Sequence record: OZ035751.1
Reading direction: 5' to 3' (one strand)
DNA: 48,490 nucleotides
DNA from: Lambdavirus PDP110P1
Below are positions 13,717 to 48,488 of this stretch, one piece after another (the stretch's first letter is position 1; each line of letters starts with the position of its first letter). The translations under genes and the position numbers were made by a program. The notes below the pieces were generated by a model. That model was not told where the DNA came from, ran no database searches, and saw only the letters and a program-made list of their open reading frames with translations.

Positions 13717-15681
13717 GTGATCATGGCAGCAACGGTAATTGACGCCCTCCTGGTTACGCTGGGCCTTGATACTTCTCAGTTCCGCAAAGGCCAGCAGGAA
13801 GTCAGTGATGACCTGAAAAAGCAGCGCGAAGATGCCAAAAATACCGCCAAGGAAATGGCGGAGCAGGGCAAGAAAGCCGCTTCGTTCTTCAGCAGCATAA
13901 AGACGGAATTGCTGGCACTAACTGGTGTTACTGTCACTGCCGGCGGCCTGATAAGCTTTGTGAAAAGCACCACTTCCGGCCTGATGGATTTATCGATCCA
14001 GTCGAAAGTGCTGGGGCTGTCAGCCCGTGAGCTTGATGGTTGGTCGAAGTCAGCAGAGGCAGCAGGGAGTTCAGCTGAGAAGATAAGCGCTTCTCTGCAG
14101 GGGTTTCAGGGCGCTATACAGGGCGCGAGGGTCGGCGATTACAGTAGCTCTATTTTTGGTGGTCTGGCGCAATTAAATGCTCTGACGGGCCAGAATTTTG
14201 ACGTGTGGGGACAGGATGCCAGTTCCCTGGCCAAAACATCCCTTGATGCGCTACGGAAAATCAGCGATCCAAACCTTCGCCGGCAGGTCGGGTTAAGTCT
14301 TGGATTTGATGATGCAACCTTGCAGCGTAATCAGGAAGGGAAATTCCTGCCTGACGTTGATCGCCTGACTAAAAGCTCCGGCATTACAGACGCCTCAACC
14401 AAAGGCGCAAAGGAAGTTACAGCTGCATGGGCGGAGCTGGGACAAAATCTTGACACGGTAAAAAACCAGATTTACGTGGGTTTGATACCAACCATTCGCG
14501 ATCTGAATGATTTCCTCATAGAGTGGTCGTCTGGTAACGCAAAATCCTCTTCATTCTTCAAAGAGCTGAAGCGGGACATTAACGACATTACTGGTATTGA
14601 CCTTGGTAGCTGGACGCTATCAGGCGATCTGCGCAACCTCAAAGATAACTTTTCCATGCTCGGAAAAGTGCTCAATCACCTGGGTAACGCTTTAAACGAG
14701 CTCAATAACGGCAACTTCTCCAAGGCTGCCGATGAGTTTAAAAAGGCGTGGTATGGCACTGAAGACGGAAAGCCTACCGGTAATGATGCGCTGCCCGGAG
14801 TGACCAAGGCAGCCGAGCAGGCGCTGAAGAAAAACGGCGGAACACTGGATTTTAAACCTGATCAGGACTCTGCGTATCTAAGCCCGCAGCAGCAGGCAAC
14901 GCAGAAAATGCTGGATGCAGTTAAGTTTCAGCCGCTTCCTGAACAGCGCAGGCAGCAGCAGGATGAGAGAGACTACTGGGAAAGCACCAAAAATCTCCTT
15001 TCAAAAATCGCTGATGCCCTGATCTCTCCAGCTGGCGCGGCAACAATGCAGCCAGATACCTCGGGATACCAGCCAAACGTCCCGCTTAACGCACAGGCTG
15101 CTCGCCTTGGCGCCAAAGGAAGGGCATTTCTTCAGGCTATGGCTGGCGAATTCGGGGCGCTGGAAGGTAAATATGGACTTCCCGCTGGGCTGCTGTCTTC
15201 GGTGGCTGGTACTGAATCGGGTGGCGACCCGTTCGCAGTATCCCCCAAAGGGGCGAAAGGCCCATTCCAGTTTATGGATGGAACTGCCAGAGACTTGGGT
15301 TTGAAGGGGATGGACGTTTATGACCCCCACAAGTCAGCTGATGCCGCTGCAAGATATTTGCGCTATCTGCTGGATGCTACTGGTGGCGATCTGGAAAAAG
15401 CTCTTGCCTCCTATAACTGGGGGCTCGGAAACGTCCAGAAGAAAGGCATGGACAACCTACCGTCGGAAACTCGCAATTACGTCCCTAAAGTCATGGCCGG
15501 AATGCGCCCCGGCGCCGGGATGGCCGTAGACCGAGCGATGCCCGTGCAGTCCGGTGCGACTTATCAGTTTTATGGCACCAAAATCACCACCCAGGCCCAG
15601 AACGTGGAACAGCTTACCAGCGACATCAAAAAGCACGGCGACAACCGTGTCATGCTTTTGGCTGGCTACTCAGGACAATAA
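13717..15681 (+). CDS. tail tape measure protein with C-terminal lytic transglycosylase (SLT) domain
   Basis: 654 aa; coiled-coil-rich N-terminal part; SLT motif …GTESGGDPFAVSPKGAKGPFQFMDGTARDLG…; ATG at 13723 has the better RBS. Confidence 0.7.
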   Translation: MIMAATVIDALLVTLGLDTSQFRKGQQEVSDDLKKQREDAKNTAKEMAEQGKKAASFFSSIKTELLALTGVTVTAGGLISFVKSTTSGLMDLSIQSKVLGLSARELDGWSKSAEAAGSSAEKISASLQGFQGAIQGARVGDYSSSIFGGLAQLNALTGQNFDVWGQDASSLAKTSLDALRKISDPNLRRQVGLSLGFDDATLQRNQEGKFLPDVDRLTKSSGITDASTKGAKEVTAAWAELGQNLDTVKNQIYVGLIPTIRDLNDFLIEWSSGNAKSSSFFKELKRDINDITGIDLGSWTLSGDLRNLKDNFSMLGKVLNHLGNALNELNNGNFSKAADEFKKAWYGTEDGKPTGNDALPGVTKAAEQALKKNGGTLDFKPDQDSAYLSPQQQATQKMLDAVKFQPLPEQRRQQQDERDYWESTKNLLSKIADALISPAGAATMQPDTSGYQPNVPLNAQAARLGAKGRAFLQAMAGEFGALEGKYGLPAGLLSSVAGTESGGDPFAVSPKGAKGPFQFMDGTARDLGLKGMDVYDPHKSADAAARYLRYLLDATGGDLEKALASYNWGLGNVQKKGMDNLPSETRNYVPKVMAGMRPGAGMAVDRAMPVQSGATYQFYGTKITTQAQNVEQLTSDIKKHGDNRVMLLAGYSGQ

Positions 15682-20909: not shown

Positions 20910-22205
20910 TTGAATAATTCAGCCATACCGTCACGTCTGACGGTTGTCTTTTCTGTGAGCGGCGATAAAAACACGATCCCGGTCAATTCCACCTCTGAAA
21001 CGCTGGCCGACGGCCTGGCGGCTATGGATTCCGGTTTCCCGCCGCTGACCCGTATCGCACTTTCTGCCGGCGGTAAGCCGCCAAAGGGTCAGGACTTTAA
21101 CGGCATTTTTAATGATCTTTACACTCGCCTGCAATGGTCGGATGCCGGGATGGGGTACCCCTTTAACGCAGATTTCAGAACAGCCATTTCAGGCTACCCT
21201 AAAGGTGCGGTGATCCCTTCCAGCGATTACTCGGTGTCGTGGCTCAACACCATTGACTCCAATAACACCGCACCGGAAAAAACCGATGCAACGGCATCTG
21301 GCTGGATGCCTTCATGGGGATGCGGAGCGGCCAGCATTTCAATATCGACGGCTAACGTTAACGCCACCGATCTGCAGGCTGCTAACCCACGGCTAATTCT
21401 CACCGGCGCGCTAACTGGCAACCGGGTCCTTTATCTTCCGCCCTGGGTGAAAGACTGGACCATCGAAAATAACTGCACCGGCAGCGCTTACTACGTTCAG
21501 TTAAGCACCAGGGCAGCGGGCGCAACGGTTGTCAGCAAGCCAGGCACAGTTACTCAAGTCCACTCCGATGGAATCAACGTAACCTCCCTTTCTACGCCTC
21601 ATGGAAACATCGCTTACGCAGTCAACGGGACATATTCGTTCGTCGTGCCTGCAGGGGTGACGCGTATTCGTTACACCGTGACGGGTGCAGGTGGATCGGG
21701 AAGCGGTTGTCAGGCGTCCTCCTCAAGTGAGTCCTATAGCGGTGGCGGGGGCGGGGCTGGAGGCACAGCAATAGGCTGGCTGGATGTTGTTCCGGGAACG
21801 ACCTTGTCAGTTGTTGTGGGCAAAGGCGGTGCAGCGGTTTTAGGTGCCGTATCCGGCAATGACGGTGGTGACTCTTCTTTGGGTGGGATCATCTTCGGTC
21901 GCGGCGGCAAAAAAGCCAACAAGGCCAGCATCGTGAACAGCGCCGGTGGTGATGGTGGTCTTGCATCAGGTGGCGATATCAACATTCAGGGTGGTACCGG
22001 TCAGGACGGCCAGGCAGCGACAAACATGCTTACCGGTTCTGGCGGTGCTTCGTTCTGGGGTGGTGGCGGACGTAGCGGCGCAACCGGCGGTGTGAAAGGG
22101 AAAGCAGCAGGCTCTGGCGGTGGTGGTGCTTACGATATTGATTTCAGCGGAATAGCTTACCCATCCGGCGATGGCGCCGATGGCATTGTGCATATCGAGT
22201 GGTAA
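20910..22205 (+). CDS. tail fibre protein with glycine-rich C-terminal domain
   Basis: 431 aa; TTG start with GGAGG RBS; C-terminal Gly-rich domain paralogous to that of 25986-27017. Confidence 0.55.
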   Translation: MNNSAIPSRLTVVFSVSGDKNTIPVNSTSETLADGLAAMDSGFPPLTRIALSAGGKPPKGQDFNGIFNDLYTRLQWSDAGMGYPFNADFRTAISGYPKGAVIPSSDYSVSWLNTIDSNNTAPEKTDATASGWMPSWGCGAASISISTANVNATDLQAANPRLILTGALTGNRVLYLPPWVKDWTIENNCTGSAYYVQLSTRAAGATVVSKPGTVTQVHSDGINVTSLSTPHGNIAYAVNGTYSFVVPAGVTRIRYTVTGAGGSGSGCQASSSSESYSGGGGGAGGTAIGWLDVVPGTTLSVVVGKGGAAVLGAVSGNDGGDSSLGGIIFGRGGKKANKASIVNSAGGDGGLASGGDINIQGGTGQDGQAATNMLTGSGGASFWGGGGRSGATGGVKGKAAGSGGGGAYDIDFSGIAYPSGDGADGIVHIEW

Positions 22206-45634: not shown

Positions 45635-45958
45635 ATGAAGATGCCAGAAAAACATGACCTGTTAGCCGCCATTCTCGCGGCAAAGGAACAAGGCATCGGG
45701 GCAATCCTTGCGTTTGCAATGGCGTACCTTCGCGGCAGATATAATGGCGGTGCGTTTACAAAAACAGTAATCGACGCAACGATGTGCGCCATTATCGCCT
45801 GGTTCATTCGTGACCTTCTCGACTTCGCCGGACTAAGTAGCAATCTCGCTTATATAACGAGCGTGTTCATCGGCTACATCGGTACTGACTCGATTGGTTC
45901 GCTTATCAAACGCTTCGCTGCTAAAAAAGCCGGAATAGAAGATGGTGGAAATCAATAA
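45635..45958 (+). CDS. S: holin S
   Basis: 107 aa [22 protein letters not shown]… with Met1-Lys2-Met3 dual start; recognised as lambda S. Confidence 0.9.
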
Positions 45959-46418
45959 TCAACGTAAGGCGTTCCTCGATATGCTGGCGTGGTCAGAGGG
46001 AACTGATAACGGACGTCAGAAAACCAGAAATCATGGTTATGACGTCATTGTTGGCGGAGAGCTATTCACTGATTACTCCGATCACCCTCGCAAACTTGTC
46101 ACGCTAAACCCCAAACTCAAATCAACAGCCGCCGGACGCTACCAGCTTCTTTCCCGTTGGTGGGATGCATACCGCAAGCAGCTTGGCCTGAAAGACTTCT
46201 CTCCGAAAAGCCAGGACGCAGTGGCACTGCAACAGATTAAAGAGCGTGGCGCTTTACCGATGATTGACCGCGGTGATATTCGTCAGGCAATCGACCGTTG
46301 CAGCAATATCTGGGCTTCACTGCCGGGCGCTGGTTATGGCCAGTTCGAGCATAAGGCTGACAACCTGATTGCAAAATTCAAAGAGGCTGGCGGAACGGTC
46401 AGAGAGATTGAGGTATGA
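45942..46418 (+). CDS. R: endolysin R (lytic transglycosylase)
   Basis: 158 aa [26 protein letters not shown]…; recognised as lambda R. Confidence 0.9.
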
Positions 46419-46882
46419 GCAGAGTAACCGCGATTATCTCAGCTCTGGTTATCTGCATCATCGTTTGCCTGTCATGGGCTGTTAATCATTACCGTGATAA
46501 CGCCATCGCCTACAAAGAGCAGCGCGATAACAAGGCCAGTGAACTGGAGAAGGTGAACGCCACCATTACTGACATGCAGCAGCGCCAGCGTGATGCTGAT
46601 GCACTCGATGCTAAATACACGAAGGAGTTAGCCGATGCAAAAGCTGAAAATGATGCTCTGCAGCGCAAGCTTGATAATGGTGGTCGGGTGCTCGTCAAAG
46701 GCAAGTGTCCAGTGTCAGCCGCAACCCAAACCACCGGCGCCGCCAGCATGGGCGATGATGCCACCGTCGAACTCTCTGCAGTTGCTGGACGAAACGTTCT
46801 TGGTATCCGATCCGGAATCGTCAGCGACCAAACAGCCCTGAGAGCGCTGCAGGAATACATCACCACGCAGTGTTTGAAATAA
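46415..46882 (+). CDS. Rz: spanin inner-membrane subunit Rz
   Basis: 155 aa; N-terminal TM helix then coiled-coil; lambda Rz-like. Confidence 0.85.
46635..46841 (+). CDS. Rz1: spanin outer-membrane lipoprotein Rz1 (embedded in Rz, +1 frame)
   Basis: 68-aa ORF inside Rz; lipobox VVG-C; Pro-rich; RBS GAAGGAG. Confidence 0.7.
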
Positions 46883-46940
46883 GGCATTCATTGAATGCCT
46901 GTGATAATGTTTCCCCATGTACTAATCAAGCGGGAAAAAA

Positions 46941-47180
46941 ATGAATCAGGTCATTCTCATTCTTGAAGGGCAAAAGCCTCAGTCAATCAATGTCGCTGAT
47001 GGTATTAAATCAGTCAGGCATCTTCTTTCTGATGGACGTGAGGTGTGCATAGATATCATGACTGCTATCGTCAGGACTTCACACGGTGGGGAAGAGTCAT
47101 ACCTTGTCGCAACGGATATTGATGATATTTCTCCGCGAGAAATACAGCTCGCGGCGGAGTTATTGTTTCCCCGTACTTAA
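46941..47180 (+). CDS. hypothetical protein
   Basis: 79-aa ORF after the lysis cassette, followed by a weak terminator hairpin. Confidence 0.45.
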   Translation: MNQVILILEGQKPQSINVADGIKSVRHLLSDGREVCIDIMTAIVRTSHGGEESYLVATDIDDISPREIQLAAELLFPRT

Positions 47181-47202
47181 TTTTGACTCTTCGAAGCCAT
47201 CA

Positions 47203-47228
47203 CAAAGGCCACCCACGGGTGGCTTTCC
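47203..47228 (+). terminator. putative terminator hairpin
   Basis: GCCACC-CACG-GGTGGC followed by TTTCC; T-tract is weak. Confidence 0.4.
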
Positions 47229-47852
47229 TATGTTTAGTTCTGCAGACACACCGATCCCCGGAATGGAGGTTCCGTTCACGTGGCAGGCTAGCCTGGAGTT
47301 AAACGCGAAGCTTTACTCTGCGCTGGGGCAGTGCAATCTGGATAAGGCGGGGATTAGAAAGGTAGAGGAAGAACGCCGTAGTACTTTGCAATGATGCTGC
47401 AGATTAGGATGACGATGGCATTAATTGCCGGGGCAAACGGTGCCAATGTATTTAGTACTTCTAACATGTATACCTCCTTGGTTGTGAATGGTTGTCAGCG
47501 CTTCTCTTGTGTAACTTATTCCTCCTGTGGCTGTTCCTACTCGTTTAACATTAAAGGCCTTGAACGGTTATTTTTCGTTCTATACTCGCCACTATTGAGT
47601 GTCCAACGTGTTGGACAAGCCCTTCCTAATAGTGAGTCTTAATAGCTTCTGAGCAGTCTTTGTCTCTTATAAGAGACAAGCACATCCATGCCGGCAGACA
47701 AAGGTAGGTACCGAAAGAGGCGTTCAATAATTTTATAAAGTTCTGCAAATGATGCCTTTTTGTATCATTGACAGAGTTTTATGTGAGTTTACGGGTGCTG
47801 CGGTGTCGAAATTACCGAAATGGCATCAAAGCAACCCAGAGGATTATTCTGT

Positions 47853-48488
47853 ATGGCTGGAAATGACAATCGCAGACCATACCCTCCCGTCAACTTCACT
47901 GGCGAAAACTGGCTGCCTTATACCCGGCTGATCCCTGCTGCCGAAATCGGCGAATGGGTAAATCAGAACATCCTCTCCGAAGATGGCCGAATCCATAACC
48001 CTGACCATGCGCACTTGCTCGATGCTGATGTCGCGTTCATGTGGGCCTCTGGCTCATTCGCCAAAAGCGGCCGCATTGTGCTGGGCCAGTGTGAGCAGGT
48101 AATGATGCGCGCCGGTGGCTGGCAGAAAGCCAGAATGGAGCAGCAGATGCATGAATGGTTCGGACGCATACCGAAGTTCATCATCACCCTGGCTGCTGAC
48201 TACTGCGAGCAATGCAACGATCTGGAGTTCTGCGCACTGGTAGAGCATGAGCTTTACCACATCGCCCAGGCTACCGATGACTATGGCGCGCCGAAATTCA
48301 ACAAAGAGACCGGTATGCCGGTGCTCAAACTTCGCGGCCACGACGTCGAGGAATTCGTCGGAGTTGTCCGGCGTTACGGCGCCAGCAAAGACGTGCAGGA
48401 AATGGTGGATGCGGCGAACAGGCCGGCGGAGGTTGCTCATATCGATGTTGCCAGAGCGTGTGGGACGTGCATGCTGAAACTGGCTTAA
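47853..48488 (+). CDS. HExxH-motif protein (putative metallopeptidase) upstream of the packaging genes
   Basis: ~211 aa from ATG 47853 (RBS GAGGA); motif HELYH; track ORF starts at 47820. Confidence 0.45.
   Translation: MAGNDNRRPYPPVNFTGENWLPYTRLIPAAEIGEWVNQNILSEDGRIHNPDHAHLLDADVAFMWASGSFAKSGRIVLGQCEQVMMRAGGWQKARMEQQMHEWFGRIPKFIITLAADYCEQCNDLEFCALVEHELYHIAQATDDYGAPKFNKETGMPVLKLRGHDVEEFVGVVRRYGASKDVQEMVDAANRPAEVAHIDVARACGTCMLKLA

Follow-up and report, generated by a model that had tools for sequence, protein, structure and literature searches.

Introduction

Sequence record OZ035751.1 holds 48,490 nucleotides (nt) of Lambdavirus PDP110P1, and this whole stretch, which we call the window, is a lambdoid temperate phage and kin of several Klebsiella prophages. 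Inside a gap of ~640 nt that has no annotated gene, and on the strand opposite to the late operon, it carries a small open reading frame (ORF; positions 47354–47467, minus strand) for a hydrophobic, single-helix peptide of 37 amino acids. Is this small ORF a gene and, if it is, which RNA polymerase reads it and what might its product do? We find that it is a conserved coding gene and that the DNA upstream of it holds a tandem array of sequences resembling the promoters of T7-like phages; this array is the decisive feature of the locus, and the original prediction of the ORF had not remarked on it. We suggest that the prophage probably uses the RNA polymerase of an invading phage to turn on a defensive peptide. 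Put more fully, and with a probability of about 60%, the 37-amino-acid ORF would be the payload of a prophage "promoter trap" that a superinfecting T7-like phage sets off with its own RNA polymerase and whose peptide aborts or blocks the infection.

Results

The small ORF is a conserved coding gene

The ORF starts with an ATG at 47467–47465, ends with a TAA at 47356–47354 and translates as MLEVLNTLAPFAPAINAIVILICSIIAKYYGVLPLPF. A Shine-Dalgarno (SD) motif, AAGGAGG, can be read in the sequence at 47473–47479 on the same strand, with a 5-nt spacer (TATAC) between it and the ATG, and the original prediction of a 37-amino-acid ORF with AAGGAGG at ideal spacing is thus borne out. The peptide has a grand average of hydropathy (GRAVY) of 1.52, and its top 19-residue window, residues 8–26, scores 2.31. 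Conservation of the frame in related phages, which had been put forward as a check on the ORF, was found: 66 related prophage loci contain 45 distinct nucleotide versions, all of which encode 32–41 amino acids with an SD-like motif, an ATG and a common stop position. Further copies of the cassette, as we call the ORF together with the promoter array before it, were gathered by pattern scans of IMG/VR.

Alignment of the window with five relatives shows ~350 nt upstream and ~130 nt downstream of the ORF at roughly 90–100% identity; in some of these relatives the ORF body between the two flanks has been swapped for unrelated sequence, and the replacement retains the SD, the ATG, a hydrophobic peptide of 37–38 amino acids and the same stop. 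At least three mutually unalignable peptide families fill this one slot between conserved flanks. We distinguish A (MLEVLN..., the window's), A2/D (...LICLLIAKxYGVLQYF), B (MSHIEII...), B2, C/G (...LTGSPLSF), E, F and H, and a hydrophobic 19-residue segment is present in every allele family. The SD and ATG are constant across the alleles and the spacer is variable (AAGGAGGTATACATG, AAGGAGGTTTAATG, AAGGAGAATAAATG, AAGGAGGAAAAATG). The first of these, the window's own ribosome-binding site (RBS) region at 47465–47479 (minus strand), is nearly identical to the T7 gene 10 leader of pET vectors, AAGGAGATATACATATG; the likeness may have arisen by convergence on a strong RBS, or this region too may have been borrowed.

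Ratios of nonsynonymous to synonymous polymorphism (pN/pS) were computed on the codons outside the overlap with a LysC remnant on the opposite strand (below), an overlap that takes in the last 13 codons. They are 0.08 for family A, the window's, and 0.38, 0.36 and 0.26 for B, C and D, respectively, so that four of the five families having meaningful counts lie between 0.08 and 0.38. Because the SD, the ATG, the stop position and the hydrophobic frame are kept in 45 versions and pN/pS is low, we conclude that the small ORF is a real, conserved coding gene. The same 37-amino-acid coding sequence is annotated in Klebsiella phage RCIP0114; E. coli 20KM2222 has an identical prophage region in which the small ORF is without annotation.

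The contrary possibility, that the locus is a non-functional mosaic and the ORF a chance frame in junk DNA between the lysis and packaging modules, can draw on the lack of an annotation for the peptide in most records and on an exhaustive search of 1.84 billion representative proteins that returned two clusters only, the window's family and its A2 sister. Against it stand the preservation of frame, SD and ATG across 45 distinct sequences and several unalignable families, the pN/pS values just given, and the extreme strand-specific concentration of phage promoter motifs described below, and we regard it as very improbable.

Nine allele peptides had no match in NCBIfam or PADLOC, neither to Hok, Ldr, TisB, Ibs, ShoB, Zor, DinQ or other toxin families nor to the defence proteins catalogued in PADLOC, and four allele peptides had none in Pfam and non-significant ones only in PHROGs (E at least 0.019). 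A 17-mer scan of genome contigs (one genome per species) gave chance-level matches in unrelated metagenome-assembled genomes only. A toxin-like or membrane-active role of the peptide is plausible. A role as a holin or other lysis-cassette protein was considered and rejected: the ORF is opposite and convergent to the lysis genes, a set of S, R, Rz and Rz1 genes of its own is present on the window's plus strand, and there is no match to a holin family.

The first 11 residues of the A and A2 peptides (MLEVLNTLAPF and MLEYLKALSPY) look like the membrane anchor at the N-terminus of gp18.5, the i-spanin of T7, T3 and K11 (MLEFLRKLIPW, MLEFTKRIVPY). Comparison of the peptide with T7/K11 gp18.5 gives a weak N-terminal resemblance (E = 0.46) that is not significant alone, and the allele peptides found nothing significant in six-frame translations of eight Autographiviridae genomes; the likeness hints that the A/A2 peptide family may be derived from, or interfere with, an invader's spanin.

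The ORF is preceded by four sequences that resemble promoters of T7-like phages

Four look-alikes of single-subunit RNA polymerase promoters (P1 to P4) lie within 180 nt upstream of the ORF, all on the ORF (minus) strand, within roughly 145 nt of each other and pointing at the ORF. Reference promoters were taken from the T7, T3, K11 and SP6 annotations, the search space for the window was 97 kb of two-strand sequence, and chance expectations came from shuffles. Each element of the array is the sole match in the 48.5-kb window, with 0–0.02 expected, and the elements match sequences that are repeated at coding-strand intergenic positions in polymerase-encoding phages of the P1 to P4 types.

P1 (TATTAAGACTCACTATTAGGAAG, 47622–47644, inferred start at the A at 47627) is of the T7/Studiervirinae type. 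It agrees with T7 phi2.5 (TAATACGACTCACTATTAGGGAA) at 19/23 and 18/20 positions, the unusual TATTAGG start region included, and is the sole window match within 3 mismatches over 20 nt, where none is expected by chance. A 15-mer of P1, ATTAAGACTCACTAT, is common to the repeated promoters of a 41-kb T7-like IMG/VR contig (L193), whose promoter form, used repeatedly, is ...TTAAGACTCACTA(T/A)AGGGAGA. Promoters of the P1 types are repeated in the T7, K11 and T3 annotations, in L193 and in dozens of 40–41 kb contigs.

P2 (AATAGTGGCGAGTATAGAA, 47578–47596, inferred start at the G at 47580) is of the type found in Molineuxvirinae, here an SP6-like Klebsiella phage. It is an exact 19-mer, unique in the window, with none expected within 3 mismatches. 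The 19-mer or a one-mismatch variant is found at 12 or more places in phage vB_Kpn_K61PH164C1 (OY979414.1), each of them on the coding strand and at a gene end or in an intergenic gap, and ~20 related phages have 2–4 BLAST matches each to it. Its score of 33.2 bits in a position-weight model built from OY979414.1 is within the range of that phage's own sites (31.1–39.1 bits).

P3 (TAATGTTAAACGAGTA, 47538–47553, inferred start at the G at 47537) is of the KP34/Drulisvirus type and is the sole window match within 2 mismatches, with none expected. It agrees at 14/16 positions with the strong promoter of the KP34 RNA polymerase, TAATGTTACAGGAGTA, a promoter of the form T(A/G)ATGTTACAGGAGTA that was defined by in vitro transcription and 5' rapid amplification of cDNA ends (5'-RACE) (PMC6834552). 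The exact KP34 16-mer, for which that in vitro evidence was published, is present in many other cassettes, the window's P3 being a 14/16 variant of it. Drulisvirus KpV41 has four copies of a P3-type promoter, including the variant TAATGTGATACGAGTA in an intergenic gap.

P4 (TAAGTTACACAAGAGAAG, 47501–47518) resembles the promoter repeat of Klebsiella aerogenes phage 6939 (Autographiviridae; OL362271.1), with 1 mismatch to AAGTTACACAATAGAA (15/16); it is the sole window match, with 0.02 expected. The motif is the most repeated word in phage 6939, where the coding strand carries all 12 of the sites found within 4 mismatches, 9 of them in intergenic gaps or at gene ends. The P4 consensus, CACAATAGAAC, is present in most other cassettes. 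Because the four cognate polymerases are only 25–44% identical to each other in pairwise comparison, P1 to P4 represent four separate phage lineages.

Two further elements accompany the promoters. A perfect 20-bp palindrome, TTGTCTCTTATAAGAGACAA (47660–47679), forms the upstream edge of the array, is kept in cassettes and occurs once in the window, against a chance expectation of none; phage 6939 has three exact and four looser copies (1–4 mismatches) of the near-identical TTGTCTCCTATAAGAGACAA, and two of the three exact copies are directly upstream of its promoter repeat. A hairpin, TTGTCCAACACGTTGGACA (47600–47618, minus strand), lies between P1 and P2. It has ~8 copies in the SP6-like Klebsiella phage vB_Kpn_K61PH164C1 and is present in SP6 too; in K61PH164C1 the hairpin stands directly before the promoter, and a hairpin-promoter unit lies just after the RNA polymerase gene. 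The phage hairpin was carried into the prophage cassette along with the promoters. A conserved hairpin immediately upstream of a promoter can also be seen as a repeated unit in the phages themselves (phage 6939, 15024–15065 and 22906–22950; K61PH164C1, 14716–14763).

The promoter sites are confined to one strand of the leader

The strand bias was measured in the 66 cassette loci with position-weight models for which eight sets of phage promoters were used, and a site had to reach 18 bits to be counted. The sense strand of the 260 nt upstream of the ORF holds 182 sites (10.6 per kb), the antisense strand of the same 260 nt holds none, and the remaining 1.11 Mb of the 66 loci holds one; 48 of the 66 cassettes have 3–4 promoter sites.

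Promoter type and peptide allele are exchanged as modules

The first slot of the array is itself variable. Between cassettes, the P1 slot is occupied by complete promoters of T7-, K11-, KP32-like or T3-type, and the differences lie in the specificity region. The T7-type occupants TAATGCGACTCACTATAGGAGAC and GAATACGACTCGCTATAGGGAGG score 29.2 and 24.4 bits, respectively (T7's own promoters score 26–39 bits), and the K11-type AATTAGGGCCCACTATAGAGACC scores 28.8 bits; AATTAGGTAGCACTATAGGGAGG is KP32-like and ATTAACCCTCACTATAGG is T3-type. In other cassettes the P1 and P4 slots reach 27.8–29.2 bits or have the exact consensus. Because the KP32-like motif TTAGGTAGCACTATAGG is repeated many times per contig in dozens of 40–41 kb phage contigs, it is the promoter native to an actual group of phages.

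P1 types are combined with peptide families in many ways, so that the P1 type and the peptide allele are shuffled independently of each other. The more distant cassettes differ in their neighbours and peptides and have shorter leaders; in 14 of 16 of them, SP6-, K11-, T7- or 6939-like promoter cores again lie upstream, and only on the sense strand. Prophages thus exchange promoter type and peptide allele as modules, and the argument from swapping of the P1 slot stands regardless of the shared descent of the cassettes. Close relatives that are 95–96% identical in their structural genes are without the whole cassette and, because they lack it, we take the cassette to be an accessory "moron", a status that is typical of prophage defence genes.

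No host-type promoter or antisense RNA was found for the ORF

A simple consensus scan of the minus strand from 47468 to 47830 found no sigma-70-like site (at least 9/12 positions), and no antisense-RNA gene for the ORF and no Rfam family was found (46800–48000, permissive threshold, with one chance-level match). The sole candidate source of an antisense RNA lies on the plus strand at 47545–47574, where a sigma-70-like site (TTAACA, 18 nt, TATTTT; 9/12 positions) inside the array points toward the metallopeptidase gene described below; the sigma-70 scan was at chance level, with 2 sites found and 1.6 expected. If used, this plus-strand site would give an RNA antisense to the P1-derived leader.

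The original prediction had likened the ORF to type I toxins. Its description of a small, hydrophobic, single-helix peptide with a strong RBS in an intergenic region has stood up, and the type I toxin-antitoxin framing has not: the ORF strand has no sigma-70-like promoter, the locus has no antisense-RNA gene or Rfam family, and the peptides have no toxin-family similarity, all within the searches described above. Since the leader is a tandem array of T7-like phage promoters, it suggests that a foreign polymerase, and not an antisense RNA, controls the ORF.

The ORF might nonetheless be an ordinary moron for lysogenic conversion or superinfection exclusion, or a type I toxin, that is made by host polymerase in the lysogen and perhaps checked by antisense RNA or late read-through, with the promoters as recombination scars from T7-like phages. 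A small hydrophobic peptide, a strong SD and a position opposite to the late genes are typical of such genes; late transcription is necessarily antisense over the ORF, the plus-strand site at 47545–47574 could yield a leader antisense RNA, and P1 and P4 of the window are degenerate. The three negative results just listed speak against this explanation, however, and scars would not be expected to come as promoter-sized pieces only, from four lineages, in one orientation and before one ORF. Nor would they be expected to show a sense-only enrichment of 182:0:1 or a first slot replaced by other complete promoter types between conserved flanks. We therefore consider this explanation unlikely.

No single-subunit RNA polymerase is encoded in the window, and for this reason a polymerase of the phage's own was rejected as the user of P1 to P4. 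No published description of such a natural cassette was found in searches by concept, promoter sequence and peptide sequence, which did not cover all journals. The prophage small RNA svsR, which limits coliphage infection (PMC12803456), was considered as the same element and rejected, since it maps to the cI gene and is unrelated.

Neighbouring genes and the flanks of the cassette

The plus strand of this part of the window carries, in order, holin S, endolysin R and Rz with embedded Rz1 (45635–46882), and then an ORF of 79 amino acids; the lambda-type Rz/Rz1 pair itself occupies 46415–46882. The 79-amino-acid ORF (46941–47180, plus strand), which lies between Rz and the LysC remnant, is labelled "hypothetical protein" in E. 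coli 20KM2222 and had no significant match in Pfam or PHROGs. It is followed by the ~640 nt without annotated gene in which the small ORF is placed, and then by a "putative metallopeptidase" gene (47820–48488, plus strand; Pfam PF18894), after which the terminase genes come in relatives.

Two plus-strand ORFs that overlap this region, 47086–47394 and 47391–47642, had been described as compositionally random, and this holds for one of them in the sense that the 47391–47642 frame is not conserved; 1-nt and 4-nt indels in relatives break it, and it was rejected as a real gene. The description fails for the other. Residues 53–100 of ORF 47086–47394 are the C-terminal part of a LysC/Rz1-type o-spanin (PHROG 3001, E = 1.3e-15, positions 12–59 of 70); the same region matches Pfam PF23793 (LysC) at E = 1e-5 and 25.8 bits, just below the 27-bit cut-off, over positions 35–69 of 69. 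Relatives have lysC/Rz1 annotated at this position, and conservation of ORF 47086–47394 with relatives begins at ~47242. Its N-terminal part has no recognisable lipobox on reading and, with the C-terminal region alone matching, the ORF was rejected as a complete o-spanin, and also as a real gene. Because the window already has its own Rz/Rz1, the LysC stretch (47242–47394, plus strand), which is convergent with the small ORF and overlaps its last 13 codons, is a 3' remnant. It is the conserved 3' flank that travels with the cassette, and its presence beside a complete lambda-type Rz/Rz1 pair suggests that recombination exchanged the lysis module and left the 3' end of the old spanin gene on the cassette.

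A terminator scan found a G+C-rich, terminator-like hairpin, GCCACCCGTGGGTGGC, at 47205–47226 on both strands, ~130 nt past the stop codon of the small ORF; it could end the transcript of the 79-amino-acid ORF on the plus strand and that of the small ORF on the minus strand. This flank bears on a further possibility, that an invader's polymerase does use the array and that the RNA is what matters, as a decoy or sink for polymerase, as antisense that runs through into the lysis or regulatory genes of the prophage, or as a signal for prophage escape, with the ORF secondary. In its favour, T7-type polymerases have high processivity and read through many host terminators, no terminator stands between the ORF and the lysis genes in relatives whose lysC is intact, and conservation is higher in the promoter elements than in the peptide sequence. 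Yet no version has lost the SD, the ATG or the hydrophobic frame with its constant size, purifying selection acts strongly on the window's family, and in the window the terminator-like hairpin follows the ORF and no further minus-strand gene lies downstream for more than 2 kb. A polymerase with more than ten strong promoters to serve on a replicating phage genome would, moreover, hardly be drawn off by a single chromosomal copy. We think this explanation distinctly unlikely as an alternative to the peptide; an RNA-level role in addition to the peptide is possible.

On the other side of the cassette, the segment 47733–47818 (minus strand), upstream of the metallopeptidase gene, is kept in relatives that lack the cassette, and its plus strand contains a perfect TTGACA. 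The segment is probably part of the upstream region of the metallopeptidase and terminase genes and not of the cassette. Other ORFs of 37–39 amino acids are annotated in related Klebsiella prophages, opposite to the late genes in the interval from the antiterminator Q gene to the holin, at loci L003 (4886–4999, plus strand in the locus) and L312 (1755–1874, minus strand in the locus). L003 was part of the 66-locus promoter scan, which found one site outside cassettes overall, and L312 was outside that scan.

Discussion

A proposed promoter trap for superinfecting phages

The promoter trap proposed here would work as follows. In the lysogen the cassette is probably silent, since no host-type promoter was found. 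A superinfecting Autographiviridae phage would make its own single-subunit RNA polymerase, which would recognise one of the four tandem promoters (T7/Studiervirinae-, SP6-like Molineuxvirinae-, KP34/Drulisvirus- or phage-6939-type) and transcribe the short leader and the ORF. With its strong RBS and tiny size the ORF would quickly give the hydrophobic peptide, and the peptide may then insert in the inner membrane and kill or disable the cell, or otherwise block the invader before progeny are made; membrane depolarisation, premature lysis and block of a phage function are possible actions. The outcome would be abortive infection or exclusion, by which sister lysogens, and hence the prophage, would be protected. 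T7-type phages inhibit the host RNA polymerase, and a defence gene that is read by the phage polymerase would therefore escape this shut-off. Small membrane toxins can serve as abortive-infection effectors, as in the exclusion of T4 by hok/sok.

The exchange of modules suggests a more elaborate form of this proposal, on which we are evenly divided: the cassette would be a modular immune sensor in which a promoter array drawn from four lineages stands before a tiny membrane toxin, the P1 slot is swapped to track the local phages (T7, T3, K11, KP32), the effector is swapped independently, and an arms race is played out in promoter specificity.

Several points weigh against the promoter trap. Only P2 is at full strength among the four promoters of this window: P1 is degenerate with respect to T7 itself (17.1 bits in the T7 position-weight model), P3, at 25.7 bits, is just under the sites of its own phage (26.8–29.8 bits), and P4 is weakened (19.5 bits against 26.1–34.8 bits for its own sites). 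An unrelated site, CTATAGGACTCACTTGAGGAGGA, at 21717–21739 on the minus strand scores 18.8 bits in the T7 model; this isolated site is probably due to chance and shows the noise level of that model in the window. The 66 cassettes share descent, so their enrichment counts are not independent events, and the sigma-70 scan, being consensus-only, may miss a weak or activator-dependent host promoter. When leaders beginning at each inferred start, and one read through from upstream, were folded, accessibility of the SD did not change with the start, the SD lying in one weak local hairpin in all of the transcripts folded. Family B2 gives no sign of purifying selection, on few changes, and the peptides belong to no known toxin or defence family. 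Finally, T7-type phages break down host DNA in a matter of minutes, and expression would have only a limited time. The same breakdown would favour a very short gene, a strong RBS and several strong promoters, and in this it is consistent with defence. The architecture of the cassette is well supported by the sequences compared; from them we infer the mechanism, namely that an invader's polymerase transcribes the cassette, that it is silent in the lysogen, and that the peptide is toxic at the membrane and gives protection. We give the full defence reading about even odds.

Significance

Known anti-phage systems sense phage proteins, nucleic acids or cell damage, and we know of no system that uses the specificity of an invader's RNA polymerase as its sensor. 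A defence of the kind proposed would go on working after the phage has shut off host transcription, would have no cost while silent, would cover several phage lineages with ~150 nt of DNA and could be retargeted by the exchange of a 23-bp promoter. It would explain some of the prophage-dependent resistance to Klebsiella and E. coli podophages, phages that are widely used in phage therapy. Phages would be predicted to escape through changes in their polymerase or in promoter specificity, and this would be a selective reason for the diversification of promoter specificity among T7-like phages. If the proposal is right, it also supplies a search rule for similar traps, which is to look for phage-type promoters before small ORFs in bacterial and prophage DNA.

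Comparison with known systems

Type I toxins (hok/sok of plasmid R1 against T4; TisB, ZorO, DinQ) are like the cassette in having a very small, single-helix, hydrophobic peptide, a strong RBS, a leader of tens to ~160 nt and a home on a mobile element, and an action at the inner membrane is presumed. Here, in contrast, no antisense RNA or host-type promoter was found and there is no sequence relationship. The triggers also differ: that of type I systems is the decay of the antitoxin RNA after host shut-off, and the one proposed for the cassette is transcription by a foreign polymerase.

Closer in design are man-made systems. Djordjevic et al. in 1997 reportedly engineered a "triggered-suicide" defence in Lactococcus by fusing a phage-inducible promoter to a lethal gene. 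This design and the pET/T7 design share with the cassette a phage-only promoter, a strong RBS (compare AAGGAGGTATACATG and AAGGAGATATACATATG) and a short effector gene, and the cassette would be a natural counterpart of the laboratory T7 expression cassette. Unlike them it is natural, polymorphic, multi-promoter and found in wild prophages, and its lethality is putative.

Cross-activation between satellites and helpers (P4/P2 late promoters; PICI, SaPI and PLE) is similar in that a resident element stays silent until factors of an incoming phage act on it. Satellites respond to activator or antirepressor proteins and serve their own spread, whereas in the cassette the promoters are the proposed sensor and one tiny peptide is the output. 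Lambda RexAB, SieB and HK97 gp15 are, like the cassette, accessory genes of lambdoid prophages, with a small or membrane protein set against unrelated superinfecting phages, but they are expressed constitutively from host-type promoters in the lysogen and sense the invader at the level of protein or DNA, and the allele peptides have no sequence similarity to them (no match in PADLOC).

The native promoters of Autographiviridae (T7, T3, K11, SP6, KP34) are matched by P1 to P4 in sequence, length, orientation and accompanying hairpins. What sets P1 to P4 apart is that they stand in tandem, with each lineage represented once, and that the temperate lambdoid phage which carries them is without such a polymerase. 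We would rate the cassette a new kind of sensor.

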